A DNA stretch of 32,000 nt from Vulcanisaeta distributa DSM 14429 (GCF_000148385.1 NC_014537.1:540001-572000), one strand, 5' to 3'; positions 2,515-12,297 are shown, counted from the stretch's first letter. Notes: generated by a model from the sequence alone, not told the origin. Made by a program: numbers and translations.

Positions 2515-3567
2515 ATGGGACTAAGCAACTGGTGGTATTACACAGGCTCAGCAACCAAGGCAATAACAATAACGGGGATCATAGCCATAGCACTACTAGC
2601 TACAGTAATAGCAAGCCCGCACGTCAAGCCTCTCCAGCCCATTGCCAAGTCGCTTGGGCTAATCCAGACGCAGGTCCAGACGGTCTACGTGCCGGTGAAC
2701 CACACGGTGGTTAAGTACGTGAATCAGACGGTTGTTAAGTATGTGAACCAGACTGTGCCCGTCTACGTGAATAGGACTGTGTACGTCTACGTCGGCAACG
2801 CCTCGCTGGCGCCCATCGTGGCTATGGCCGGTAAGTGCGCCGGCGACCTAGTCATACTGCCGAACAACACCGCCTGGTTCGTGTTCGCGTGGCTAATACC
2901 CAAGGAATACCTAGTGGGCAATCCAGTGCTGTATCGTGCGTTGGTTGCGAATGGCATACCGCCGATATACTACAACTCCACAAACCACTACGCACAGCTC
3001 TATGGATTGCTAGATACGGCCTTCTTCGGCCTATCGCCGAAACCGATGAGCCTGTACACTTACAATGCCTGCTACCTGGATAACGTTACCTTTAACGGCT
3101 ACTACATAGCCATATGCGGGGACACCACCGGCGGTGGCCCATTCGCCGTATCCGCCGGCGAATTCCCGCCGGCCGGCATAATCAATGTGAGCGGCATATA
3201 CTACCAGAGGATCACACTGCTTCAGTTTAGTGATCAGCCAGCGTTTGTCGGCTCGCAGTTAATCCTGAGTAACCGCACGTACAGCAACGCCACGCTTGTT
3301 ATACCCAGCGTGAATACCACCTACACAGGCGTCATGTTCATATACGGCGGCGTGACTGTTGGGAGGAATCTTGGATACCCGCTATCAACGCTGGGGCCAG
3401 CCTGCAACATAACCGTCATATACGCGCCGAATCCGCAGGCGGCGTTGTACATAACGCTACCGCAGGAATACATAAACTACTGGAGAGAGTCTGTTAATAC
3501 AATTTGGGGCTATTATAACCCAAATGACGTATACATGGGCTATTGGGTGTGGAATTATCCGAGCTAA
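2515..3567 (+). CDS. hypothetical membrane-anchored or secreted glycoprotein
   Basis: 350-aa ORF with an N-terminal hydrophobic helix (ITITGIIAIALLATVIA), then an octapeptide sequon repeat and many further N-x-S/T sites. An AT-rich TATA-like stretch lies about 30 nt upstream. No family recognised. Confidence 0.6.
   Translation: MGLSNWWYYTGSATKAITITGIIAIALLATVIASPHVKPLQPIAKSLGLIQTQVQTVYVPVNHTVVKYVNQTVVKYVNQTVPVYVNRTVYVYVGNASLAPIVAMAGKCAGDLVILPNNTAWFVFAWLIPKEYLVGNPVLYRALVANGIPPIYYNSTNHYAQLYGLLDTAFFGLSPKPMSLYTYNACYLDNVTFNGYYIAICGDTTGGGPFAVSAGEFPPAGIINVSGIYYQRITLLQFSDQPAFVGSQLILSNRTYSNATLVIPSVNTTYTGVMFIYGGVTVGRNLGYPLSTLGPACNITVIYAPNPQAALYITLPQEYINYWRESVNTIWGYYNPNDVYMGYWVWNYPS
2695..2790 (+). repeat. 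4 x 24-nt in-frame tandem repeat encoding VN-x-T-V-x-x-Y
   Basis: Read directly: gtgaaccacacggtggttaagtac / gtgaatcagacggttgttaagtat / gtgaaccagactgtgcccgtctac / gtgaataggactgtgtacgtctac. This encodes VNHTVVKY VNQTVVKY VNQTVPVY VNRTVYVY, so each unit carries one N-glycosylation sequon. Confidence 0.85.
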
Positions 3568-3606
3568 AGTCATAATAAAAATTAAAATTTTAAATTAAAA
3601 GTAAAT

Positions 3607-5571
3607 TCATTGTTTTCCTTTACCTCCTGATGATTGGCATACTACTATTATATTGAATGATGCTGATCCTGTGAAGCCCGAGGCGCTTCCGCCTGATGGG
3701 TTTGTGTTAACGCTTTGGACTCCGTACTGGCATACGTTGTCTATTGTAAATGATGCACTTCCGCTGCCGAAGTTTGCGTAGACCTTTGCCGTCACCTGTA
3801 TGCCAGTTCCTTGATATATTTTTCCTGTTGCTGACCATGAGTTTGCTGGGTCGTCTGGGCAGAAGCTCCACTCAAAGGTGGCGCTGGATGAGGTGTAGTA
3901 CGTGAACTTCACCGTGTAGGATGTGCACTTTAGGAAGGTGTAGCTTGCGGTGCCGCTTATGCTGACGCTTGCCGGCGATGGGCAGTAGAGTGGTGCGCCG
4001 AATTCCGACAAGTCAGTCGTGCCAGACCACGCGTAGCCGCTTGGGCTCACGCTGACGCTCCAGCTCTGGAACTGGAACTCATCACCGCTTGTATCCGTTA
4101 TTGTAAGTGGTGCGGTGCAGCCGTACATGCCGACCTGCCCGCTGCCCACAGGCTCGCTACTCGGCCCAGAGCAGCTAACGCTTTGCTGTATGCTGCCATG
4201 CACACCACTTGCGCTTATCGACGACGAGTAGGAGTAAGTACACTGCTGGTTGTTGCTGGGTGGTGGAGGAGGTGGAGGCGGCGGTTTGTTGGTGCAGGTT
4301 ATTGTTATTTGTTCCGTGAATGAGCCTTTGGGTGTGAATGTTTGGCCTATGCCGTATGGGCTTCCACTGGCTGTGCAGCCGCTGGGTAGGTTCTTGACTG
4401 TGAATAGGTACGTGAGACCTCCACTAACTGTGGCGGTGTATGGGCCGCCGTTACCGGCGCCACTCCACCAATCAATGTCAATTGTGGAGCCGGCGATGTA
4501 TTGATCCAGGTAGACGGTCCACGACACGCCGCTGGGCGCGTAGACATACACGGTAACCGTGTATGAGCTACCTCCGCCTCCCGGTGGTGGGCTTGGCGAT
4601 TGATTACCCGTGCAGGACACCGTGAATGCTACAGATTGGCCTGGGCCTGCGGATGTGGAGGTCGGGCTTATGCTGCAACTGCTGTATCCACTGGGCACGC
4701 TCGTTATCGAGGCTTGGAAGTTTACGGTGCTCAAGGCGGATACCGTCCACGACGCAGAGCTAGAGCCGCTCTTGCTGCCACTGGCGCCGCCGCTCCAGGA
4801 CACGCTCCACCCAGCACCGTATGGATCGTCGACGCTCACCGTTATTGGCATGACTGAGCACGTCACGTTGAACGCCTGGATGCTACCTGCGGTGTACGTT
4901 TTAGCTACTTGGCTCGGCACTATCTGACATGTGTAGCCGTGCGGAGTGTTAGTTATATATGCAAGGAACTGTATCTGTATTGGGACGTAGGGCGGATTAA
5001 TGAACCACGAGTAGGATTGACTCTCGCTCACTGAGTACGACTGCCCAGCATAACTCCAAACCACCCTCCACCCAGCGCCGAATGGGTCATTAACCACCAC
5101 ATTTATGAGGCCGGAGCCTGGCTGTAACTGTGCCTGTGGTATTAGCGGTATTGAGGTTACTGTCGACACATTGGCACTGAATTCCTTGATAATCCCCGGG
5201 TAACCCACTGGCGATGCCAACACCGTTATTGATGCAGGCTCATAACTCAAGCTCAGCGTATACACGTAGTACTGGTTCACACCAAGCACCAGGTTTGGTG
5301 CATACACATGCATCGAGCCATCAACGCCCCTGACGTATACGTACTTAACAATCGCCCTGTAATAACCAATGTTGTACATGGGCACGTACAACGTCCCATT
5401 TACGTAGATGGGCTGCGGCAGGTATATGTAAAGGCCAGCGTAGGCAAGCCTCGCGTTGTTTACCGTCGACACGGTGATCGTCAAGTAAGCTAAGCCACCA
5501 ATTAGCACCAGGCCAAGTGCAATAGCCAGTATCAGCGTAAGCCCCTCAAGGACTAAGTCAGCCAACGCCAT
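3607..5571 (-). CDS. large Ser/Thr-rich cell-surface protein with repeated Cys-bracketed beta-rich domains and a poly-Pro linker
   Basis: The track ORF is 3607..5685 (692 aa). I prefer the internal ATG at 5571 (MALADLVLEGLTLILAIALGLVLIGGL...) because a GAGGTG Shine-Dalgarno-like word sits 7 nt upstream of it. The ORF has one N-terminal TM helix, three related roughly 80-aa modules (DPFGAGWRVVWSY..., DDPYGAGWSVSWSG..., APSGVSWTVYLDQ...), a P9 run and a PSPPPGGGG linker. Confidence 0.65.
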   Translation of the reverse strand: MALADLVLEGLTLILAIALGLVLIGGLAYLTITVSTVNNARLAYAGLYIYLPQPIYVNGTLYVPMYNIGYYRAIVKYVYVRGVDGSMHVYAPNLVLGVNQYYVYTLSLSYEPASITVLASPVGYPGIIKEFSANVSTVTSIPLIPQAQLQPGSGLINVVVNDPFGAGWRVVWSYAGQSYSVSESQSYSWFINPPYVPIQIQFLAYITNTPHGYTCQIVPSQVAKTYTAGSIQAFNVTCSVMPITVSVDDPYGAGWSVSWSGGASGSKSGSSSASWTVSALSTVNFQASITSVPSGYSSCSISPTSTSAGPGQSVAFTVSCTGNQSPSPPPGGGGSSYTVTVYVYAPSGVSWTVYLDQYIAGSTIDIDWWSGAGNGGPYTATVSGGLTYLFTVKNLPSGCTASGSPYGIGQTFTPKGSFTEQITITCTNKPPPPPPPPPSNNQQCTYSYSSSISASGVHGSIQQSVSCSGPSSEPVGSGQVGMYGCTAPLTITDTSGDEFQFQSWSVSVSPSGYAWSGTTDLSEFGAPLYCPSPASVSISGTASYTFLKCTSYTVKFTYYTSSSATFEWSFCPDDPANSWSATGKIYQGTGIQVTAKVYANFGSGSASFTIDNVCQYGVQSVNTNPSGGSASGFTGSASFNIIVVCQSSGGKGKQ

Positions 5572-5810
5572 AACCAAACACCTCATAACCACTGGCATTA
5601 CCCACGGACCTAACAACAACCACACAACCATCCAGGAATAATAACACCTCACCAACCGCATAGTTACTCCAGGGGATTTACCCATCCTTTGATGCGTCGC
5701 TAATTACTTTATTAACTCCTTAAGGAAGTTTGTTTAAGGTTTCGTTACCTGCCTTTTCATTGCCTGGGCTTTGGGGTAATGTTTTAATTTGTTTTTTGGT
5801 TTGTTGTTTT

Positions 5811-6506
5811 GTGCCTGGTAAGGTTTTGGTTGTTGGTGTTGTGGTTGCCGTTGTTGTTATAGCCATTGCCTTGATCCTACTGATGCATCCATTCGCCTCG
5901 AAGCCGTCGGTGGCTTACCTAACCGTTAACGCCCCATACGCATTCTTGAGACCTTTGGGGAGTGGGCAGTACGAACTATTCTACTACGATCAACAAGGCA
6001 ATTTACACGACTTAGGAACATACAACGTATCCAGCACAGTGCTGAGTGAAGCAGTTAATGAAATCAACTCATTCAACCAACAAAATGCTGGAACAATGAT
6101 TAATGGACAAAACTTCATACCATTAAGCTACGAGGTAGTCATAGGAAACTCAACAGGAGTAGTAAAGATACCGATACAGGGAGACACAATACTGCTGGAT
6201 AAAGTCAACCCAGGATACTGGACAGTACTGGTAACAGACCAAAACGATTTAACAAAACTAGCATACGCATTGGATGTAGGATACAAAGAAGCAGCAATAG
6301 TAGCCAGTACCTCAGATTTATGGTACCAACCTGGAGTGGGAACGGTGTTAACAGAAACATTAAATTTACAAAGTATGAGCGGTTTTGTAGGTGGATATGT
6401 TATAGTAATGAATAATGGAACATTAGTACCATGGGGATTTGGAGGAGGAAATACAGGTTATTATCTGCAATTTATAACACAAGCAAGTGGTACAGGATAT
6501 AGTTAA
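5811..6506 (+). CDS. hypothetical membrane-anchored protein (N/G/Y/T-rich ectodomain)
   Basis: The track ORF 5730..6506 starts at TTG. An in-frame GTG at 5811 gives a conventional short N-terminus plus TM (MPGKVLVVGVVVAVVVIAIALILL). The coding region is AT-rich (32% G+C by hand count for 6061-6120). No family recognised. Confidence 0.5.
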   Translation: MPGKVLVVGVVVAVVVIAIALILLMHPFASKPSVAYLTVNAPYAFLRPLGSGQYELFYYDQQGNLHDLGTYNVSSTVLSEAVNEINSFNQQNAGTMINGQNFIPLSYEVVIGNSTGVVKIPIQGDTILLDKVNPGYWTVLVTDQNDLTKLAYALDVGYKEAAIVASTSDLWYQPGVGTVLTETLNLQSMSGFVGGYVIVMNNGTLVPWGFGGGNTGYYLQFITQASGTGYS

Positions 6507-6508
6507 CT

Positions 6509-7123
6509 TTAAGGTATAACTAGCTCATAAGGGACTCCAAAAGTAGCAATTATCCAATTTAGATACATATAACCGTCTCCTCCCCCAGAACCTGTAGATA
6601 TGAACAAATAGGGGGTATCTATATAATTGGCTATTTCTTCAACTAATGGTGGTTCATTTATCGTATTTTCTTGGCCTATTACAAAACTATAATATCTTTC
6701 ATTATAACCAAAGGTTCCATTGATGAATTCTGATTTTAAAGAATTGTAATCTATTGTATTATATAGATTTAGTGTTACATTTCCTTCGGCTTCGAATGCT
6801 GTTTGGTATGCGTTTTGGTAGCTTGTTGCTAGGTATGTTGATGGTGATAATGGTGATAACGCATATGCACCTATAGATGGAACAAACTGCATTGGTAAGT
6901 TATTATTGTAAATATTCCCATTAACCATAAAGTAAACATCTAATGCATATTTATTACTTTCATCCAAAGAAAACCAATAGTACGTATAAAACACTCCATG
7001 GTACATGTAGTTTTGATTCTTTTGCTGATCCCGTGGTGTAAGTGGTATGTATGGGGTTGTTCCTGCATAATTATTGCCACCCCAAACAATTACCTCACTA
7101 ATAATGGGATTTAGGAACAACAC
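6509..7123 (-). CDS. hypothetical N/Y-rich protein with no signal peptide (possibly 5'-truncated)
   Basis: 204-aa ORF with a GTG start at 7123 and an in-frame stop 4 codons upstream. It is very AT-rich (20% G+C by hand count for 6901-6960). It converges on the previous gene with a 2-nt spacer. No family recognised. Confidence 0.4.
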   Translation of the reverse strand: MLFLNPIISEVIVWGGNNYAGTTPYIPLTPRDQQKNQNYMYHGVFYTYYWFSLDESNKYALDVYFMVNGNIYNNNLPMQFVPSIGAYALSPLSPSTYLATSYQNAYQTAFEAEGNVTLNLYNTIDYNSLKSEFINGTFGYNERYYSFVIGQENTINEPPLVEEIANYIDTPYLFISTGSGGGDGYMYLNWIIATFGVPYELVIP

Positions 7124-7173
7124 CGTGGGAATTTTCTAAATAATTCCAGGAAAGGGCTTGAAAAACGTATGGT

Positions 7174-7207
7174 CCACGACGTAAACAATCGCAGGCGCTT
7201 ACGTCGT
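7174..7207. other. 10-bp perfect inverted repeat (cacgacgtaa ... ttacgtcgtg) with a 14-nt spacer
   Basis: Read directly: 7174-7183 is the reverse complement of 7198-7207. It overlaps the stop codon (7200-7198) of a short reverse-strand remnant ORF (MYHAVAVNDFVEAHGVTT*). Confidence 0.5.
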
Positions 7208-7297
7208 GACTCCGTGGGCCTCCACGAAGTCGTTAACCGCAACAGCGTGGTACATTGTTCTGTGGTTCAGTGGGTCAATGAAGCCCGTCCAGCCAGC

Positions 7298-7305
7298 CTT
7301 TTAAG
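7298..7305 (+). promoter_or_regulatory. candidate TATA box (CTTTTAAG) for the GC-rich RNA region
   Basis: This is the only TATA-like word immediately upstream of the GC-rich block. Applying the 26-28 nt TATA-to-start spacing seen at four other promoters in this window predicts a start near G7327/7328, just before the first helix (7338-7386). Confidence 0.35.
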
Positions 7306-7472
7306 CCCTGACCCTTAATTATTAATGGAGGTTATGAGCCCCTGAGGTATAGCGTCGGGGTTTAGCCCCGGCGAATCCTCGGGGGTGATCCAGCGGGCCC
7401 GTGGGCTGGGTAGAGGGGCTTAGAGTAGGTACTCGATGCCTAATTGCCCAGTCGCCTAACTACCCAGTTGCC

Positions 7473-7699
7473 CCGTGCCCCCTCAACCCACCCCCTCCTC
7501 CCCCATTCTCCCTTGCGGGCCGGTGGCTCCCCTCGTGGGGGGGCTCCCGGCGTGTGTGGGGGGCTGTGGGGGCTTGGGATCTCCATGAGCCCCGGGAGTC
7601 CGAAGGCTGGGGGTGCCGCCCGTGGGATGGCGATGGGGGCTTGGGATCACCAAGAGCCAAACCCACAGGGCCGGCGGGAGGGGTGTTGAGGGGGCACGG
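7473..7699 (+). other. RNA domain A, closed by a 15-bp perfect long-range helix plus a bulged extension
   Basis: ccgtgccccctcaac (7473-7487) is the exact reverse complement of gttgagggggcacgg (7685-7699). The pairing continues as 7490-7494/7680-7684 and 7496-7499/7676-7679, with small bulges. Inside is a 25-nt direct repeat, 23 of 25 identical (7567-7591 and 7634-7658), and each copy can form a small hairpin. Confidence 0.6.
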
Positions 7700-7792
7700 A
7701 GGCAGTGACCAGGAAAGTAAGCTAGCAAGTTGTACAGCAGTCCCTAGGCAGAAATAACCAATGTGCCGCGGTGTGCGGGGAAGAAAAGAATA

Positions 7793-7816
7793 TTGTTCTA
7801 TATTTTGCTAGAACAA
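7793..7816 (+). other. AT-rich 8-bp hairpin (ttgttcta / tagaacaa) whose loop reads tattttgc; possible boundary or internal promoter between the two GC-rich domains
   Basis: Read directly. It lies in the roughly 180-nt AT-rich gap (about 7775-7960) between the two GC-rich blocks. A second perfect palindrome, taatcccc-a-ggggatta, lies at 7859-7875. Confidence 0.35.
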
Positions 7817-7978
7817 GTTATTAATGAGAAAACCGAGAAACGTGGGAAATTGGTAAGTTAATCCCCAGGGGATTACTGGACAAGTGGCTATTAAGCACAA
7901 GGCTTATTGGGAGCGATAAGTACTTAAGGCTGTAGGTGGAAGAGAGGCTGTCCCCGCCAGACCCCCAAACCGGTGGGG

Positions 7979-8241
7979 TTCCCGACCATGCCTGATCCCC
8001 GAGGTGTCCCTGCCCCGGTGGGGGTTTCTCCACCCCACCGGGGCGCCTACCCACGCTGGCTTGTTTTCCTTGTTTTCGTTCTTTATCCTTCCTTTTCCCT
8101 GGCTAAGTGGGTGGTGAGGCCCCGGTGGGGTGGAGTAGCTGGCATCCCTGGGTGTCGCCGTGAGGCGGCTACCGGGGCTCTGCCGGTGAAACGACCCCGC
8201 TGGGGTAGGGATAAATCTCGGGGATCAGGCATGGACGGGAA
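7979..8241 (+). repeat. 25-nt inverted repeat (24 of 25, with a 17-bp perfect core) enclosing 213 nt; either RNA domain B or a MITE-like unit
   Basis: ttcccgaccatgcctgatccccgag (7979-8003) compared with the reverse complement of ctcggggatcaggcatggacgggaa (8217-8241) shows a single mismatch, at 7985/8235. The enclosed sequence holds a 13-bp hairpin (8011-8045), a 41-nt tract with only 4 purines (8060-8100), and nested helices with a GUGA tetraloop. Confidence 0.7.
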
Positions 8242-8509
8242 AAACGGGATTAAAGGGCAAACCCCCGATGACGCCGTAGGGAAACCTACGGCAGATGAAT
8301 TAAAACCCCACCGTTTGGGGGTTTACGGTGGGGACACTGAGAGCGGGGAGGGGAGGGGCGATAAGCCGACTAGGCTGCCTATGCTGCGTGAGGGCCACGC
8401 CGCGGATTGGGGCCCAGCCATAAGGATATGCTGGGGCGTCAAAGTAAAAGGCAAGAGAAGGCCAAGGTGTGGCGAGGAGGTCAGCGACGTGAGAGTAATC
8501 GAGGAGGTA

Positions 8510-9916
8510 ATGAAGTTGATTAACGAGTTCCTTGACCGAGTCGAGAGGCACAGGGATGTATTGTTGGGTGAATCAACAACGCCATTTGATAAGGCAATCA
8601 ACGATCTGAATGGCTGGTTAATGGCGATGGAAGAAAAGGCCAAGGAGAGCAATGACCCAACCACCACCGAACTGAGGAAGGCAATGATCGACATCGGCAG
8701 GAAGATGCTACAATTAGCCAGACAAGCCAGGAAAAAGTGGCTGACAGCATACCGAAAAGAGCTCGAGGAATTAATCGAAAAGTTAAGGAGGGGCGAGATA
8801 ATGATAATCGTGCGAGGTGAAGCACTCAATAAAAACAAGAGCTTTGGCATTTACTTTTACGCTAGAAACATAACAATTATAATAAGCAAGGTTGCCAACT
8901 CAAATAGTGTAATAATACACACAGTACTGGTAGGCCTTAGGGGTACTGACATCGTAATTCCCAGGTTGTTTGGTGATGATGTGCTCAAGCCCATGCGTTA
9001 TGGTTTGATGATGACCGATGGATCGATTGATAAAAGGGGCTACTTAGTGATGAACACCAACCAGCTTTGGCAGTCTGTGATGTGGATACTGACGTGGCCT
9101 GGGAGAAATGCTATGTGCATAGCCAGTATGAACCTCAATGAGACCAACGTCAACATCAAGTGGCGTTTAACGGCCGTTGATCATAGAAATGAAGTCGAGA
9201 GCAAAACCAAGGTTGCCGAGGAGGTTTCTAAGCTTAGTGATGAGGAGTTTCTAACGTTCCTATTGTTTACTATTTTTGGAGATGGTGATATCAATGTTGG
9301 GGTGAAGAGGATTGGGCTCACGATTGGTGATTTGAAGCACGAGTTGTGGAGGGGCATCATCGAGAGGATAAAGAACCTCGGCTTTAAAGATCACAATAAT
9401 AGGAATACTAAGGAGTATATGATTCACAGCTCAAAGGCTGTCGAGCTCGCCAGGAAGTGGCTCAGTAATGCGTTAATTAGGGTAATGATTGAGGACTTGA
9501 GCTCATTGCCCGACGCCGAGAAACTCAGGCGTTTAGTGGCGTTGGCTAGTGCGAAGGTTAAGCCGAGGGGTAGGTCGTCAGTTGAGGTCGCCGGCGTTAG
9601 GATGAATGTGCGCGTAGGAAATAATCGTGTAGAGCTTGTCATTATGCGTAGTAGGCTTGAGGACGCAGAGACAATCCTAAAGAAACTCAGAAACGCAGGC
9701 TATAACGCCAAGCTATCCAAACGAAACAAGAATTTCGCGGTCTACATAAACAACGATGAAATCAAGAAGTACCCAGAGCTTGTTGCCAAGGTCTGTGAGG
9801 TGCTTAGGAGGATGCATGAGGAGGCAGTGAACGAAGGCAAGACCGAGAGGGCTTGGAGGGTAGCTAAGGCGATGGCAAACCTAAACTGCCCCGCCCAGGG
9901 CCCACGGGCTCAATAG
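8510..9916 (+). CDS. 468-aa protein with two LAGLIDADG-like motifs (homing-endonuclease or maturase fold), an N-terminal coiled-coil-like region and an extra C-terminal domain
   Basis: GAGGAGG (8501-8507) lies 2 nt before ATG 8510. Motif 1 is MRYGLMMTDGSIDKRGY (nt 8993 onward). Motif 2 is FLTFLLFTIFGDGDINVGVKRIGLTIGD...IIERIKNLGF (nt 9248 onward). They are about 85 aa apart, as in single-chain double-motif LAGLIDADG enzymes such as I-DmoI. The track extends this ORF to 7973 (647 aa), but that upstream part is GC-rich, low-complexity (PRG-rich) and coincides with the helices, so I treat it as non-coding. It may belong to the poorly characterised PaREP2-type families of Thermoproteales; that is from memory and unverified. 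Confidence 0.6.
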   Translation: MKLINEFLDRVERHRDVLLGESTTPFDKAINDLNGWLMAMEEKAKESNDPTTTELRKAMIDIGRKMLQLARQARKKWLTAYRKELEELIEKLRRGEIMIIVRGEALNKNKSFGIYFYARNITIIISKVANSNSVIIHTVLVGLRGTDIVIPRLFGDDVLKPMRYGLMMTDGSIDKRGYLVMNTNQLWQSVMWILTWPGRNAMCIASMNLNETNVNIKWRLTAVDHRNEVESKTKVAEEVSKLSDEEFLTFLLFTIFGDGDINVGVKRIGLTIGDLKHELWRGIIERIKNLGFKDHNNRNTKEYMIHSSKAVELARKWLSNALIRVMIEDLSSLPDAEKLRRLVALASAKVKPRGRSSVEVAGVRMNVRVGNNRVELVIMRSRLEDAETILKKLRNAGYNAKLSKRNKNFAVYINNDEIKKYPELVAKVCEVLRRMHEEAVNEGKTERAWRVAKAMANLNCPAQGPRAQ

Positions 9917-10306
9917 AGATAAACCCTAATTCCGTAGATACTCAAATAACGATTTTCCTCAGCATTAACGAGGTAATAAAACCTAGTAATAGAGAGATAG
10001 GACATGATGCTCACAGTCTTCAGCCGAGGATTTGCTAAGCGTCACCCTGAATTACTTACTATATTCGGTGCCATTTATTGTCCATGCCCTTTACATGCTT
10101 GTATTGTTCAAGGGCAATCCGTATTAGGAGTGTTCATGCTGTTTTTAGGTGGCGTTTGCTAGTTTTTGTCTTTTCACACAGCATGTGCCTATATACGGTG
10201 TATGACATAGCGTCGCTATGGGCGACGCTGACGGCCCTTGGCATGGGCGAGAGACCCAGTGGGCGCGGTATCGTTGGTGTTTCACTGGTGATAACTACAA
10301 TTACAT

Positions 10307-10679
10307 TTACATTATTGGTGTATGGATGCCGCAAGGCCCAGGGAGCTCATTGATAAGTACCGACAACAGGTTAGGCAGTATTACCCAACAATTGATGATT
10401 ACCTGGATGCGCTTAAAGTGCTCGGTGGGTAGTTTCGAGAGCACCTCGTTATTTAATTCCACGGCCCTCCTAACCCTCTCCTTAGCCCTGCCCTTATCTG
10501 GGTTGTACTCGCCATAAACATCGAATTGAAGAATATCCGGTGCATCGAATTGAACAACGTCAGCACCAGCATCAAGCGCTGCCCTCACCTCATTAATTAT
10601 TATCTTCAATTATTATCTTCTTAAGTGCTCTAACAGCCATGTCTAGGTCTTCATCGGTTATGCAGTAAGGTTGTCCCAT
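10307..10679 (-). pseudogene. internal fragment of a cobalamin-independent methionine synthase (MetE/UROD-fold)-like gene, frameshifted by a 13-bp tandem duplication
   Basis: Reverse-strand reading from ATG 10679 gives MGQPYCITDEDLDMAVRALKKIIIEDNN*. The track ORF 10307..10609 reads (M)KIIINEVRAALDAGADVVQFDAPDILQ.... Removing one 13-bp copy joins them into ...LKKIIINEVRAALDAGADVVQFDAPD.... This resembles the MetE catalytic-domain block (E-x-x-x-L-x-x-AG-x-x-x-IQIDEPA), but at least 150 aa of N-terminal sequence and the C-terminal zinc-site region are absent. Homology probably ends near 10432. Confidence 0.4.
10595..10620. repeat. perfect 13-bp tandem duplication (aattattatcttc x2)
   Basis: Read directly: 10595-10607 is identical to 10608-10620. 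Confidence 0.95.
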
Positions 10680-10731
10680 TATTAAGCTTTTATTGAACGC
10701 ACTAAACAAACCCTTATTAGGGGTTCAATAA

Positions 10732-11202
10732 TTGATAACCCATGTGGAGGAATTGCTCAGGTTGATCAATGAGGAGAGCAGGAAGAGGGGCGTCACGACG
10801 GAATTATTCCTGGCCGATTTGCTGGCTCAGAGGCTTGACCCTAAGGATAGGGTTTACATATACCTGAAGATTCACGAGGAGCTACTTAAGCATAGTGATG
10901 AGGAGTACGTTAAGGGAGATCTGGTTCAGGCCAGTGAAAAGCTTTGGGGCGCGGTGGCTGCTTTACTGAACGCTATCGCTGAGGCTAGGGGTTGGGAGCA
11001 CTACAGCCACAGGGATTACGACGTAATAATCAATAGACTATTTAGGGAGACTGGTGATAAAGACCTACCACTTTACTTTGGAGCTGCCGAACGCTTGCAT
11101 GCTAACTTCTACCATAACTTCATGACGAAAGATGAGTATGAGTTGCATAGGGAGTACGTCCTTAGGTTAATAAATAAGTTGAGGGATTTATTAAAACGTT
11201 GA
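10732..11202 (+). CDS. PaREP1-family (HEPN-like four-helix) protein
   Basis: The 156-aa ORF carries the block GDLVQASEKLWGAVAALLNAIAEARGWEHYSHRDY...LHANFYHN, which matches my recollection of the archaeal PaREP1/PaREP8 family. RGWEHYSH fits the HEPN R-x(4-6)-H pattern. The more likely start is GTG 10744, about 28 nt after the ccttattagg TATA-like word. Confidence 0.6.
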   Translation: MITHVEELLRLINEESRKRGVTTELFLADLLAQRLDPKDRVYIYLKIHEELLKHSDEEYVKGDLVQASEKLWGAVAALLNAIAEARGWEHYSHRDYDVIINRLFRETGDKDLPLYFGAAERLHANFYHNFMTKDEYELHREYVLRLINKLRDLLKR

Positions 11203-11225
11203 TTGTGATTGCCGCTTACCGGTTA

Positions 11226-11237
11226 TTAAACGTTTAA
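11226..11237. promoter_or_regulatory. perfect 12-nt palindrome TTAAACGTTTAA just upstream of the pdxS TATA box
   Basis: Read directly. The TATA-like gctataataa lies at 11241-11250 and the pdxS start at 11269/11272. A near-copy of the left half (ttattaaaacgtt, 11188-11200) matches ttattaaacgttt (11223-11235). Confidence 0.3.
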
Positions 11238-11268
11238 CAAGCTATAATAATTCCTAAGCAAGCCTAAG

Positions 11269-12297
11269 TTGATGTCCGTAGCGCCCTCCTTCGAATACCT
11301 GGAGAAACTAAGGGACTTCTTCTACGGAATGCTGGAGCTCAGGGATAGGCTTAGGGAGAGGGGCTTTAGTTGGCCTAGGCCTTATGAACTAGACGGGATA
11401 ATCACCGGCACGGTGAAGGTTAAGGTCGGCTTCCCATCAATGCTTAGGAATGGGGTCATAATGGATGTGACGAATGTGGAGCAGGCGCAAATAGCCGAGG
11501 AGGCAGGCGCCGTGGGGGTCATGGTCCTGGATAAGTTGCCCTACGATGTGCGTAAGGCCGGTGGTGTGGCTAGGATGGCGGATGTTAAGGTCATTGAGGA
11601 CGTAATGAGGCACATAACAATACCCGTCTCTGCGAAGGTTAGGATTGGTCATTACTACGAGGCCTTCATACTCGAGCAAATAGGCATTGATTTGATAGAT
11701 GAGTCCGAGGTATTGACGCCGGTTGATGAGCAGCACCACATAAATAAGTGGTTGTTCTCGGTACCCTTCGTTAATGGATGCCGAGAGTTATGCGAGGCGC
11801 TTAGGAGGATTAGTGAGGGTGCATCAATGATAAGGTCTAAGGGTGAGGCGGGCACGGGCAACGTCAGTGAGGCTGTCAAGCACTTCAAGGTTCTTTATAA
11901 GGCGATTAATGAGTTGTACGCGGCATATGGGGATGGCGACGAGGAGAAATTGAGGGACTTCGCCAGGCAGTGCCAGGTGCCAATTGAGTTGGTGACCTTG
12001 ACGGCTAGGCTGGGCAGATTGCCGGTGATAACCTTCGCCGCCGGCGGTATAGCCACGCCAGCCGACGCGGCCTTAATGATGTGGCTCGGGGCTGATGGAA
12101 TCTTCGTCGGCTCAGGGATCTTCAAGAGCCAGGACCCGAGGGAGAGGGCTGAGGCTATCGTGATCGCCACAGCCCATTGGGATGACCCTGAGGTCGTCGT
12201 TGAGGCCCAGAGGATGGTTAGCGAGAAGGCATCCATGATGGGCATAGACATTAGGTCATTGAAGCCGGAGGAGTTACTCCAGGTCAGGGGTGTCTAG
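11269..12297 (+). CDS. pdxS: pyridoxal 5'-phosphate synthase, lyase subunit PdxS
   Basis: 342 aa with hallmark blocks: [97 protein letters not shown]. It has an N-terminal extension of about 40 aa. Confidence 0.95.

Follow-up and report, generated by a model that had tools for sequence, protein, structure and literature searches.

A structured 5′ leader predicted to occlude the start site of a LAGLIDADG gene in Vulcanisaeta distributa

Introduction

What does a GC-rich, helix-dense kilobase do when it lies directly in front of a LAGLIDADG-like gene? The question is raised by the hot-spring archaeon Vulcanisaeta distributa DSM 14429, from which we analyzed one stretch of 32,000 nt (NC_014537.1:540001-572000; here, the window). 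An initial annotation of this DNA had proposed a co-transcribed RNA-protein unit and offered three options for it: a maturase-like RNP, a novel mobile element, or an extreme regulatory leader. The last fits best because the Shine-Dalgarno (SD) word and AUG of the gene are buried in a covarying helix, whereas the maturase-like RNP found no direct support and the mobile element is hinted at only by inverted repeats that bracket the unit. We consider it an even call that the block is a cis-acting structured 5′ leader of about 900 nt that occludes the SD and AUG of a subclass of LAGLIDADG genes, and such a leader would most likely keep a selfish or toxic gene off.

Results

The block is GC rich and, upstream of position 8231, noncoding. 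As the initial annotation had noticed, G+C content jumps, reaching 68-73% in 200-nt windows at 7400-7700 and about 60% at 7900-8500, compared with 29-35% over 6500-7100 and 40-52% within the body of the ORF. The AT-rich genome context that had been assumed was not borne out, however, as the mean of the window is about 50%, and the island contrasts mainly with the low-GC gene pair to its left. The overlapping ORFs reported on both strands at 7401-7757 are present but spurious. Relative to the homologous locus L005, 12 of 17 indels in 7336-8230 were not multiples of 3 while both indels in 8231-8450 were, and we conclude from that pattern that 7336-8230 is noncoding. A protein-coding block, read either as 647 aa from GTG 7973 or as a 118-aa ORF at 7401-7757, is hardly credible. 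Both frames are open and the portion of the 647-aa reading from 8231 onward is truly coding, but upstream of 8231 the indel pattern refutes it. Moreover, a search of 5.8 billion proteins returned no homologue of the 118-aa ORF, nor even the ORF itself, and translations of the block are low-complexity strings of G, P, R, and W with zero Pfam matches.

Structured RNA on the strand of the ORF (+), as had been proposed, accounts better for the block, with an extent of about 7336-8230 and no Rfam match. The whole window gave zero Rfam matches at the gathering threshold, and a permissive cmscan of 7000-10200 (E ≤ 10) returned only chance matches to miRNA, lncRNA, and snoRNA models. Housekeeping RNA models (RNase P with its type T form, SRP RNA, and rRNA fragments) were unmatched in the window and in 7000-10200, and so were the ribozyme-core covariance models of group I and group II introns in the latter search. 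Nor did the 32 kb contain an rRNA or tRNA exon or an intein host, in agreement with the initial annotation. The helices it had listed were recovered, including two long-range ones (7473-7495/7677-7699 and the rod at 7950-8335), and folding z-scores against dinucleotide shuffles were -7.8 for 7336-7960 and -11.4 for 7960-8400. G.U pairs had been described as legal on the + strand, and the bias is real: the rod has 14 with zero A.C mismatches when read on the + strand and 3 with 6 A.C mismatches on the - strand, and 7336-7950 has 25 and 6, respectively. Comparative support comes from two complete leaders and three complete rods, several from draft assemblies with homopolymer errors, and with so few sequences the compensatory pairs chosen by RNAalifold did not exceed the column-shuffle null (13 versus about 12 in the 5′ domain and 15 versus about 9 in the rod).

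Where the gene begins was misplaced in the initial annotation. The ORF encodes 561 aa at 8231-9916 on the + strand, matches NCBI protein P0001 at 100%, and most likely starts at ATG 8231 rather than at ATG 8510. The AUG is conserved, with an SD-like GGUG(A) 4 to 9 nt upstream, in five loci (the window, L005, L032, L031, and L048); the N-terminal tail is conserved at the amino acid level; and downstream of 8231 the indels relative to L005 and L031 are multiples of 3. The GAGGAGG word and ATG 8510 that had been taken for the end of the block and the start of the gene instead encode conserved ...RVIEEVMKLINEF... within the protein. ATG 8381 is a possible alternative start. An SD-led start at 8231 would imply a leadered, co-transcribed mRNA.

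The protein has a double LAGLIDADG fold, which supports the earlier reading of the ORF as LAGLIDADG-like. A low-complexity N-terminal tail (8231-8380) is followed by N-terminal strands, a long helical region, a beta-sheet domain, the double LAGLIDADG core, and a C-terminal alpha/beta and helical region. The AlphaFold model (pLDDT 88.3) has two alpha-beta-beta-alpha-beta-beta-alpha core domains in one chain, and Foldseek matched it in the PDB to E-DreI, I-Tsp061I, I-DmoI, I-AniI, and the bI3 maturase with a probability of 1.0 (E-values of 1e-4 to 1e-2 and target TM-scores of 0.4 to 0.58). Motif 1, YGLMMTDGS, lies at 8999-9025 on the + strand with its Asp codon at 9017-9019, and motif 2, LLFTIFGDGD, at 9260-9289 on the same strand with its Asp codon at 9281-9283. 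In an alignment of 15 paralogous sequences, T212 and D213 of motif 1 and G300, D301, and G302 of motif 2 are invariant, so that both catalytic Asp residues are kept in 15 of 15. Sequence profiles were less responsive: Pfam gave no match to the window protein at E ≤ 0.01, whether to LAGLIDADG_1, _2, or _3 or to WhiA; the best Pfam match in the family was to PF14528 (E = 1.2e-4; 3 of 15 members); a profile search of PDB sequences recovered no LAGLIDADG chain; and NCBIfam and PHROGs gave no match. The ORF product is a candidate nuclease.

The start site lies inside a long rod. The rod is a three-way-junction domain of about 385 nt (7950-8335, + strand) with outer stems 7950-7979/8305-8335 and 7980-8023/8195-8240 and two hairpins, A and B. 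Independent folds of L005 (z = -11.75, with a 40-bp stem) and L048 gave the same architecture. The consensus energy was -110.9, compared with -35.0 ± 4.1 for shuffles, and the predicted energy of the rod at 88°C was -81.5 kcal/mol, whereas length-matched coding controls gave -4 to -22. An SD-like GGGGAUC and AUG 8231 (8220-8233, + strand) occupy the 3′ arm of a perfect 20-bp helix, 7986-8005/8215-8234. In all three full rods (window, L005, and L048), positions -10 to +3 around the AUG are predicted to be paired at both 37 and 88°C, and 7 of the 10 upstream pairs have compensatory double changes (-8, -7, -6, -5, -4, -2, and -1). Thus, in three independent lineages the SD and start codon are paired in a stable, conserved helix, the arrangement that defines a leader that sequesters a ribosome-binding site.

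The hairpins of the rod differ in what they conserve. Hairpin A (8029-8134, + strand; 16 + 8 + 5 bp) carries a 39-nt, nearly pure pyrimidine apical loop (8062-8100) with three T4 runs, and the loops of L005 and L048 are likewise pyrimidine rich and of similar length. That the loop is an attenuator, a terminator, or a protein site is speculative. We note that a TATA-like word, CTTTATC (around 8083), lies inside the loop, a resemblance of sequence only. In hairpin B (8138-8187, + strand), the internal motif CCYGGGUGUC...GGCUACCGGG is conserved; its base is kept in the window, L005, L032, and L048, and its tip ranges in length from 4 to more than 40 nt. Both GNRA tetraloops reported earlier are present, GUGA at 8160-8163 being the tip of hairpin B and GAAA lying at 8281-8284.

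Upstream of the rod, conservation is strongest at the extreme 5′ end. A TATA-like box, CTTTTAAG (7298-7305, + strand), lies about 30 nt upstream of the onset of conservation and may serve as a promoter, P1; the initial annotation had pointed to this word before the first helix, and L005 has CTTATAAA at the aligned position. The window and L005 are 44% identical upstream of 7336 and 91.5% identical over the first 85 nt that follow (7336-7420), above the ORF, with the remaining leader at 58-69%. The MFE fold places a two-tier hairpin at 7338-7386 on the + strand, 7338-7347/7377-7386 around 7353-7361/7365-7373, in which pair 7355:7371 shows one U.G to C-G change that is legal on the + strand only. 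The word GGGGGUGAUCCAGC (7381-7394, + strand) is complementary over 14 nt, with one G.U, to the 3′ end of archaeal 16S rRNA, which we take to be GCUGGAUCACCUCC for archaea in general; L005 retains GGGGGUGAUCCA.

Further structure fills the rest of the upstream part. The GC-rich domain (7473-7699, + strand; 68-73% G+C) is closed by a 23-bp C-rich/G-rich helix, 7473-7495/7677-7699, with an L005 equivalent at 3150-3175/3330-3355 and C-G to U-A changes. An AU-richer domain contains a perfect 8-bp hairpin, TTGTTCTA/TAGAACAA (7794-7816, + strand), whose stem is invariant and whose loop varies between the window and L005. About 20 to 25 nt upstream of the rod, the conserved block ATTGGGAGCGATAAGTACTTAAGG (7905-7931, + strand) includes a second TATA-like word (around 7926), a putative promoter, P2, as judged from sequence; its counterpart in L005 is TATTTAAGG, and the L048 contig starts with ATTTAAGG at the aligned position. 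Folded as a consensus, the 5′ domain in full (7330-7960) had an energy of -164.6, compared with -99.4 ± 7.1 for column shuffles, but the pairs of its whole-sequence MFE fold are poorly preserved in L005, with 28 kept and 53 broken.

Inverted repeats bracket the unit. The distal left repeat, IR-L (7395-7419, + strand), is complementary to the terminal 24 nt of the ORF, IR-R, GCCCCGCCCAGGGCCCACGGGCTC (9888-9911, + strand), which encodes ...CPAQGPRA at the 3′ end. By motif search and duplex folding, they form 12 bp, a 2-nt bulge, and 5 bp, plus a GGGGC/GCCCC pairing. L005 has the same arrangement, three loci of class II (L007, L025, and L027) have an IR-L copy immediately before the ORF, and in L027 the two repeats covary (G-C to U-A). 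IR-R is near-identical in most paralogues, third codon positions included, even at about 50% protein identity, and paralogue homology stops within about 30 nt past it. A custom scan of 7250-10000 for bulge-helix-bulge (BHB) motifs, in which a 4-bp helix separates two 3-nt bulges, gave 13 matches, about the estimated chance level, with none at the boundaries and none shared with L005, which gave 1 unrelated match.

The leader is confined to few members of the gene family. The protein belongs to a large, multicopy, fast-evolving family found only in Vulcanisaeta, with more than 10 diverged members in a genome. The RNA leader is restricted to a small subclass ("class III": the window, L005, L011, L048, L031, and L032), and in about 20 other family loci whose upstream DNA is readable, the 5′ region is short and ordinary. 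Among 18 paralogue loci examined, upstream DNA was GC rich only in L005 and in the 200 nt visible of L011, with ordinary upstream MFE values in the rest; two further DSM 14429 paralogues have merely 330- to 430-nt intergenic regions upstream. Immediately upstream, most paralogues carry a TATA box with a leaderless-type start, and therefore the long leader is an add-on and not a requirement of the protein.

RNA and ORF nonetheless share a history at some loci. The window (about 7325-9943) and L005 (about 3007-5562), with ORFs about 64% identical, share one homology unit with unrelated flanks, and to that extent the co-transcribed unit proposed earlier stood. It did not stand as a general RNA-protein module, since the 20 or so other family loci and the V. 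souniana orthologue (L025) are without the RNA. The latter marks a recombination breakpoint at 8466: to the right, blastn aligned 8466-12000 with L025 at 93.9%, gene order being shared through PaREP1, PdxS, and PdxT, and to the left there is no similarity, such that an orthologue 94% identical from 8466 on lacks the RNA region. The RNA is not obligatorily linked to the nuclease ORF across the family, as it would be in a HEARO-type system, and an obligate RNA-protein module is unlikely.

Discussion

How an occluding leader might work can be proposed from its parts. Transcription would probably initiate around 7330 from the TATA-like box at 7298-7305, and the TATA-like word near 7926 may be an additional promoter. 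The RNA would comprise a 5′ hairpin that hardly varies, the IR-L segment (7395-7419) with its potential to pair with the final 24 nt of the ORF, the GC-rich domain, the AU-richer domain, and the rod of about 385 nt directly before the ORF. With the SD-like word and AUG 8231 held in the 3′ arm of its outer helix, the rod could keep ribosomes off the start site, and it is predicted to persist at the growth temperature of 85 to 90°C. The T runs of the pyrimidine loop may contribute premature termination. A protein that could cut the genome would thereby be repressed tightly and constitutively, and expressed only once the rod is opened, or bypassed, via a trigger, an alternative transcript, or a protein. 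The leader model accounts for the rod, but not for the conservation of a further 600 nt upstream (7336-7950).

That upstream conservation could mean that the functional RNA is the leader itself or just its 5′ 600 nt, either as a stable noncoding RNA in a maturase-like or HEARO/omega-RNA-like RNP, partnered by the product of the adjacent ORF, or as a trans-acting RNA. LAGLIDADG maturases are RNA binders, and the fold matches include bI3 and I-AniI. The 91.5% identity of 7336-7420 in copies with only about 64% ORF identity, the very low consensus energy and own TATA-like box of the 5′ domain, and the inheritance of RNA and ORF as a single unit would suit such a function, and the second TATA-like word before the rod could give two transcription units. 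Moreover, HEARO RNAs also abut an endonuclease ORF and turned out to be its RNA partner (PMC9755519). Even so, a functional RNA of this kind appears unlikely. The protein does not depend on the RNA, because nearly all family members, the 94%-identical orthologue included, are without it. LAGLIDADG enzymes recognize DNA through protein contacts. Signatures of catalytic RNA or introns were absent (no Rfam group I or II match and no conserved BHB motif), and within a small search space the RNA did not turn up apart from the ORF.

The kilobase might instead be selfish or neutral DNA that came to lie between the left repeat and a class II ORF start, by internal duplication or by insertion of at least one palindromic, MITE-like element, the hairpins being a by-product of inverted-repeat DNA. 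The class II loci with IR-L directly before the ORF resemble the state before such an event, the window has the good distal IR-L (7395-7419) and degenerate proximal copy (around 8412-8424) expected after it, the insert consists of nested inverted repeats, and 5′ modules and ORF bodies reassort at breakpoint 8466. We regard an insertion as quite unlikely, however. No further copy of any part turned up in the window, the other Vulcanisaeta loci compared, or, by blastn, phage or plasmid collections, and when viral and metagenome contigs were scanned for exact words, only chance matches appeared. The arms are 35-40% diverged between lineages and still perfectly paired, the conserved SD and AUG sit exactly in the helix in three lineages, and mismatches are G.U only on the + strand, which favors selection on RNA over a young DNA palindrome. 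Alternatively, the repeats at 7395-7419 and 9888-9911, and possibly a cruciform of the rod, could be recombination or cleavage sites of a 2.6-kb cassette moved by its own nuclease. In its favor, the unit lies between 17-bp inverted repeats that covary in L027, conservation of IR-R at the nucleotide level across paralogues exceeds the needs of the protein, copies cease to be homologous within about 30 nt of IR-R, and the family is multicopy, one genome having more than 10 members. Most paralogues lack IR-L, however, and homology on the left runs 60 to 100 nt beyond it, and therefore the repeats are not the outer ends of the unit. At about 50% identity, the paralogues are old duplicates and not products of recent transposition, no target-site duplications were seen, and the G.U bias of the + strand again favors RNA. 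We judge a DNA-level role to be very unlikely.

Among known systems, an occluding leader shares single features with several. Like domesticated LAGLIDADG proteins of the WhiA type, the window protein is free-standing, chromosomal, and furnished with added domains, and the WhiA N-terminal domain is among its fold matches, with weak Pfam matches in 5 of 15 members. Unlike WhiA, the family has both catalytic Asp residues invariant and no C-terminal HTH match, and it is multicopy, fast evolving, and confined to one genus. The LAGLIDADG enzymes of archaeal BHB introns (I-DmoI, I-Tsp061I, and I-Vdi141I, among others) share the host order Thermoproteales and the fold, with I-Tsp061I and I-DmoI among the best structural matches, and their ORFs, too, are embedded in structured RNA with pairable ends (here, IR-L and IR-R). 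The window differs in having no rRNA or tRNA exon and no conserved BHB motif at its boundaries, in flanks that differ between copies, in a protein two to three times longer with extra N- and C-terminal domains, in promoter-like boxes of its own, and in more than 10 diverged copies in a genome. HEARO/IscB omega-RNA (RF02033) is likewise a large structured RNA 5′ of, and overlapping the start of, an endonuclease ORF, in the setting of a repeated genetic element (PMC9755519). The window has no Rfam match, however, its protein has a LAGLIDADG fold and not HNH/RuvC, no guide-like variable 5′ segment is evident, and most family members are without the RNA, whereas HEARO RNA occurs with the HNH endonuclease (IscB) ORF.

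The closest parallel to an occluding leader may be found in T-even phages, whose homing endonuclease genes I-TevI, I-TevII, I-TevIII, segB, and mobE have ribosome-binding sites sequestered in RNA structures (PMC2988022). The host of the window is an archaeal hyperthermophile and there is no sequence relationship. In the window, the AUG is buried as well as the SD, by a helix of 40 to 75 bp within a 385-nt rod and not by a short hairpin; an additional 600-nt conserved structured domain lies upstream; and release through a second promoter is putative. Nevertheless, in both cases a stable helix formed with the upstream transcript buries the SD of a homing-endonuclease-type gene, with repression putative here, and in both, as predicted for the window, burial would limit translation of a potentially harmful selfish protein.

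Results

The start codon sets the limit of the non-coding block. The initial annotation ended the structured region in a GAGGAGG Shine-Dalgarno word and ATG 8510, but both lie inside conserved protein sequence in an alignment of 15 relatives, among which RICWGVKVKG..CGEEV.DPR.IEEVMKLINEF is conserved upstream to approximately 8440. An ATG aligning with ATG 8231 is found in L005 (Vulcanisaeta sp. JCM 16159) and in the paralogue loci L032, L031, and L048, and a GGUG(A)-type Shine-Dalgarno word precedes each. Moreover, the low-complexity tail encoded after ATG 8231 is recognizably conserved in amino acids (in protein P0016 it is similar to that of L005, in P0124 and P0196 to that of the window), and indels relative to L005 are multiples of three 3' of 8231, whereas 12 of the 17 upstream are not. 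We conclude from the aligned ATG and Shine-Dalgarno words, the tail, and the indels that translation most likely starts at ATG 8231 and thus that the non-coding block is 7336-8230. The same start agrees with a hypothetical protein of Vulcanisaeta distributa at NCBI (P0001, 561 aa), to which the ORF product is 100% identical. ATG 8381, our first guess, was dropped in favor of ATG 8231 on the conserved AUG, Shine-Dalgarno word, and tail. Protein coding upstream of 8231 was excluded by the indel pattern and by the lack of a homologue for a 118-aa ORF. Spurious ORFs on both strands are indeed present at 7401-7757, and the 118-aa ORF there, used as bait for further copies, gave zero matches. Leaderless mRNAs are considered dominant in Crenarchaeota, and a Shine-Dalgarno-led start in such a lineage implies a long leader.

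Evidence that the leader is a selected RNA structure comes from folding and from comparison. Relative to dinucleotide shuffles, fold z-scores were -7.8 (+ strand) and -5.5 (- strand) for 7336-7960 and -11.4 (+ strand) and -8.0 (- strand) for 7960-8400. G.U pairs had been proposed to favor the + strand, and the three-way-junction domain at 7950-8335 (here, the rod) carries 14 G.U pairs and 0 A.C mismatches on that strand, against 3 G.U pairs and 6 A.C mismatches on the - strand. L005 and L048, folded independently as single sequences, produced the same three-way rod in the same place, with an uninterrupted 40-bp stem in L005. When the three rods were anchored on the AUG, positions -10 to +3 were paired in every one at both 37 C and 88 C. 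Consensus energy was -110.9 for the rod, versus -35.0 +/- 4.1 for column-shuffled alignments, and -164.6 for the approximately 600-nt 5' domain upstream of it (7330-7960), versus -99.4 +/- 7.1. At 88 C the rod is predicted to fold at -81.5 kcal/mol, while coding segments of equal length fall between -4 and -22.

Covariation, which the initial annotation had offered as a check, gave a divided answer. In the AUG helix, seven pairs (-8, -7, -6, -5, -4, -2, and -1) changed on both sides between lineages. The count of "compensatory" pairs by RNAalifold, made with two or three sequences, looks favorable against slid-partner and partner-shuffle controls but was not above the column-shuffle null, and we therefore rely on the consensus energies, the independent folds, and the hand-anchored AUG helix. 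Moreover, pairs of the whole-sequence minimum free energy fold of the 5' domain were kept in L005 in 28 cases and broken in 53, no better than chance. Given both caveats, the 5' domain is supported as structured, and any particular fold of it is tentative.

The leader follows a TATA-like box at 7298-7305 that is conserved in L005 and precedes the first helix, as originally noted, and the features that follow are likewise on the + strand. An almost invariant two-tier hairpin (7338-7386) overlaps the word GGGGGUGAUCCAGC (7381-7394; L005, approximately 3064-3075), a 14-nt complement, with one G.U, of what we take to be the canonical archaeal 16S rRNA 3' end. That complementarity far exceeds normal Shine-Dalgarno length, lies 840 nt before ATG 8231, and falls partly within the invariant hairpin. 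No conserved upstream ORF follows GGGGGUGAUCCAGC, as GTG 7401 of the window and an ATG of L005 are in different frames. Next come a GC-rich domain with closing helix 7473-7495/7677-7699 and an AU-richer domain in which a hairpin (7794-7816) is conserved, as is a block (7905-7931) that ends in TACTTAAGG and by its sequence could be a second promoter. The rod has outer stems 7950-7979/8305-8335 and 7980-8023/8195-8240, and the tetraloops and two long-range helices first described by eye are present. In hairpin B of the rod, an internal motif is conserved and the tip is variable. Hairpin A ends in an apical loop of approximately 39 nt, nearly pure pyrimidine with several T4-T5 runs, in all three rods (window, 8062-8100; L005, approximately 3681-3718; L048, approximately 120-165). 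Upstream of it are two conserved words rich in purines, GGGGAAGAAAAGAA (7777-7790) and GGAAGAGAGG (7938-7947), and a pseudoknot, triplex, or terminator role for words and loop is possible.

The block is compositionally distinct and has no counterpart in Rfam. G+C content reaches 68-73% at 7400-7700 and approximately 60% at 7900-8500, in keeping with the jump initially reported. The genome had been assumed to be AT rich, but the window averages approximately 50% G+C; the genome is therefore not AT rich, and the island contrasts chiefly with two unclassifiable genes of low G+C (29-35%) at 5730-7123. These are neighboring convergent ORFs of 258 aa (+) and 204 aa (-) whose N/Y/G/T-rich products had no match in Pfam, PHROGs, or NCBIfam, and the pair may be a horizontally acquired islet just left of the RNA. 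Genes for PaREP1, pdxS, and pdxT lie 3' of the ORF. Rfam gave no match at gathering threshold over the whole 32-kb window, and a search of 7000-10200 at E <= 10 returned chance matches only. ARAGORN found no tRNA in the window, and with the Rfam result the reported absence of an rRNA or tRNA exon stands. We conclude that the block is a real, unannotated, and new RNA family without an Rfam counterpart.

The ORF encodes a double LAGLIDADG fold, as had been suspected from its sequence. With the family alignment as input, AlphaFold gave a confident model (pLDDT 88.3, pTM 0.73), which was compared with the PDB by Foldseek, and the top matches were all LAGLIDADG proteins: E-DreI, the archaeal intron enzyme I-Tsp061I, I-DmoI, I-AniI, the bI3 maturase, and the N-terminal domain of WhiA (probabilities of 1.0, target TM-scores up to 0.58). 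The Asp residues of both motifs, YGLMMTDGS and LLFTIFGDGD, are kept in all 15 aligned paralogues. None of the curated sequence models recognizes the family, and PHROGs and NCBIfam were uninformative on the ORF and its left neighbors. Searched with a profile, 1.84 billion cluster representatives yielded 200 clusters; every named member is from Vulcanisaeta and annotated "hypothetical protein," and a genome carries more than 10 diverged copies. Thus, the LAGLIDADG-fold family is undescribed, large, and restricted to one genus. A distant branch (P0108, P0117, and P0069; N-terminus ...PPQTL.EEELRKLLRKNRFCRG...) has N-terminal extensions of 100-130 aa rich in G/P/R/N/Q, which may be genuine disordered tails or may reflect read-through from a further GC-rich element upstream. 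PaREP1-family genes (PF05942) adjoin several family members in different genomes (window, 10732-11202; L025, 1869-2315 and 7605-7856; L026, 6702-6983 and 11421+), and the PaREP1-pdxS block of L011 is inverted relative to the window.

Whether the RNA travels with the ORF depends on the copy. Positions approximately 7325-9943 of the window and 3007-5562 of L005 form one continuous unit of homology between unrelated flanks, the left flank of L005 included, with identities of 91.5% (7336-7420), 66-69% (7421-7950), 58% (rod), and approximately 64% (ORF). The expectation that leader and ORF move together thus held in L005 and failed in most paralogues: among 18 paralogue loci with upstream sequence, L005 alone has a GC-rich upstream kilobase. 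L011 is GC rich at its start, where approximately 200 nt is visible before the contig ends. At the other loci, 400-nt upstream windows fold like ordinary DNA, and two further DSM 14429 paralogues, on two Logan contigs, have intergenic regions of just 330-430 nt. Partial copies of the leader occur in L011, L048, L031, and L032, which with the window and L005 make up class III; contig breaks interrupt it in L011 and L031, and the short contigs L032 and L048 end within it. Most paralogues (class I) instead have a TATA-like TTTATTAG and the start ATGGATGTCTCATGGCTC directly upstream, and L025, L027, and L007 (class II) have a short leader. A conserved block of class I type (...CAGTGATTTATTAGTYT.GTTGGG..TTA..TCCATGGATGTCTCATGGCTCTTGA...) lies approximately 30-100 nt before the ORF in L003, L004, L009, L010, L012, L016, L018, L019, L026, L028, L029, and L002; it reads as a putative TATA-like box with an ATG approximately 25 nt later, as expected for leaderless transcripts. 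In draft assemblies of JCM strains, contigs repeatedly break off at these ORFs or shortly 5' of them (L011, L031, L048, L001, and L006), in three instances inside the rod, and assembly gaps may conceal further copies with the leader. Contigs of JCM 11216 and JCM 16159 break at the rod. L011 and the 507-bp contig L048 have many G7-G8 homopolymer runs resembling sequencing errors; the ORFs of L005 and L011 contain frameshifts that may be artifacts. In a metagenome scan, the invariant 20-mer CGGGGTTTAGCCCCGGCGAA had two matches, in an unrelated hairpin on contigs otherwise dissimilar to the window. Scans of viral contigs with three motifs gave nothing or 15 chance matches without a related ORF or RNA, and blastn against phage and plasmid collections gave nothing.

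Leader and gene body have separate histories. The syntenic locus of V. souniana (L025) is 94% identical over 8466-12000, rightward through pdxT, and unrelated further left, with a sharp breakpoint inside the ORF (window 8466, L025 5104); we therefore conclude that the 5' module and the gene body recombined. Moreover, the closest relatives of the window's 5' module are L005 and L011, and those of the ORF body are L025, L026, and L027. Thus, paralogues exchange 5' modules.

The 3' end of the ORF is also conserved. Its last 24 nt (9888-9911) are complementary to 7395-7419 in the leader, and across the window and the aligned ORF ends of L001-L027, the nucleotide word is conserved in nearly all paralogues. 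The terminal CCCGCCCAGGGCCCACGGGC (approximately 20 nt, PAQGPRA) is near-identical even at third codon positions among paralogues approximately 50% identical as proteins, and homology among them ends just past it, which points to a candidate signal that acts as nucleic acid and that all family members share at their 3' ends. A partner for the word was found in classes II and III alone, directly before the ORF in the former and 1 kb upstream in the latter, and in L027 the pairing shows G-C to U-A covariation. Pairing of 5' and 3' ends general to all paralogues was rejected, as it was significant just in L007, L025, and L027 and, for the window and L005, at their distal sites.

Discussion

What the leader is can be approached through its rivals. 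A nested palindromic insertion is a serious one for the origin of the block; however, we take the + strand bias of G.U pairs and pairing maintained across 35-40% divergence as arguments that selection now acts on the RNA fold. A BHB intron was excluded, as there are no exons and no conserved BHB motif. The RNA might instead be the partner of the nuclease, as in HEARO/IscB systems (PMC9755519), and an obligate ribonucleoprotein of that type is unlikely, since the RNA is absent from almost the whole family. More broadly, we consider it quite improbable that the RNA is the partner of its LAGLIDADG nuclease in a ribonucleoprotein, and thereby forms a new class of large and thermostable non-coding RNAs, or that the unit is a self-mobilizing cassette. 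Were it so, the role of the RNA would be to scaffold, target, or license the nuclease, or that of the protein to serve the RNA as maturase or chaperone; the inverted repeats around the 2.6-kb unit would mark a self-mobilizing cassette; and a hyperthermophilic archaeon would hold a LAGLIDADG counterpart of HEARO/IscB omega-RNA systems.

Most likely, the block is an unusually large, thermostable translational leader, and occlusion in cis is the best-supported mechanism. The Shine-Dalgarno-like word and AUG 8231 belong to the 3' arm of a helix predicted to stay closed at growth temperature, such that translation of the LAGLIDADG protein would be held down. T-runs of the pyrimidine loop could, speculatively, add premature termination. 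Occlusion leaves unexplained the conserved upstream 600 nt and the near-invariant first 85 nt, and an additional function is therefore possible, perhaps that of an RNA acting in trans, a platform for protein binding, or a means of 5'-3' mRNA pairing.

Very little, to our knowledge, is known of translational control at 85-90 C. Here, a leader of approximately 900 nt, with helices of 40-75 bp predicted to be folded at growth temperature, would bury both Shine-Dalgarno word and AUG and, if so, would rank, at the level of sequence, among the clearest examples of gene control by RNA structure in a hyperthermophile. Current annotation misses both the RNA family and the one-genus protein family, and reassortment of 5' modules by recombination is of value in understanding the ways in which selfish genes become tamed or diversify. 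Occlusion is documented for the homing endonuclease genes I-TevI, I-TevII, I-TevIII, segB, and mobE of T-even phages (PMC2988022), and the leader proposed here follows the same logic. If the proposal is correct, selfish nuclease genes of archaea would be restrained just as the homing endonucleases of phage T4 are.
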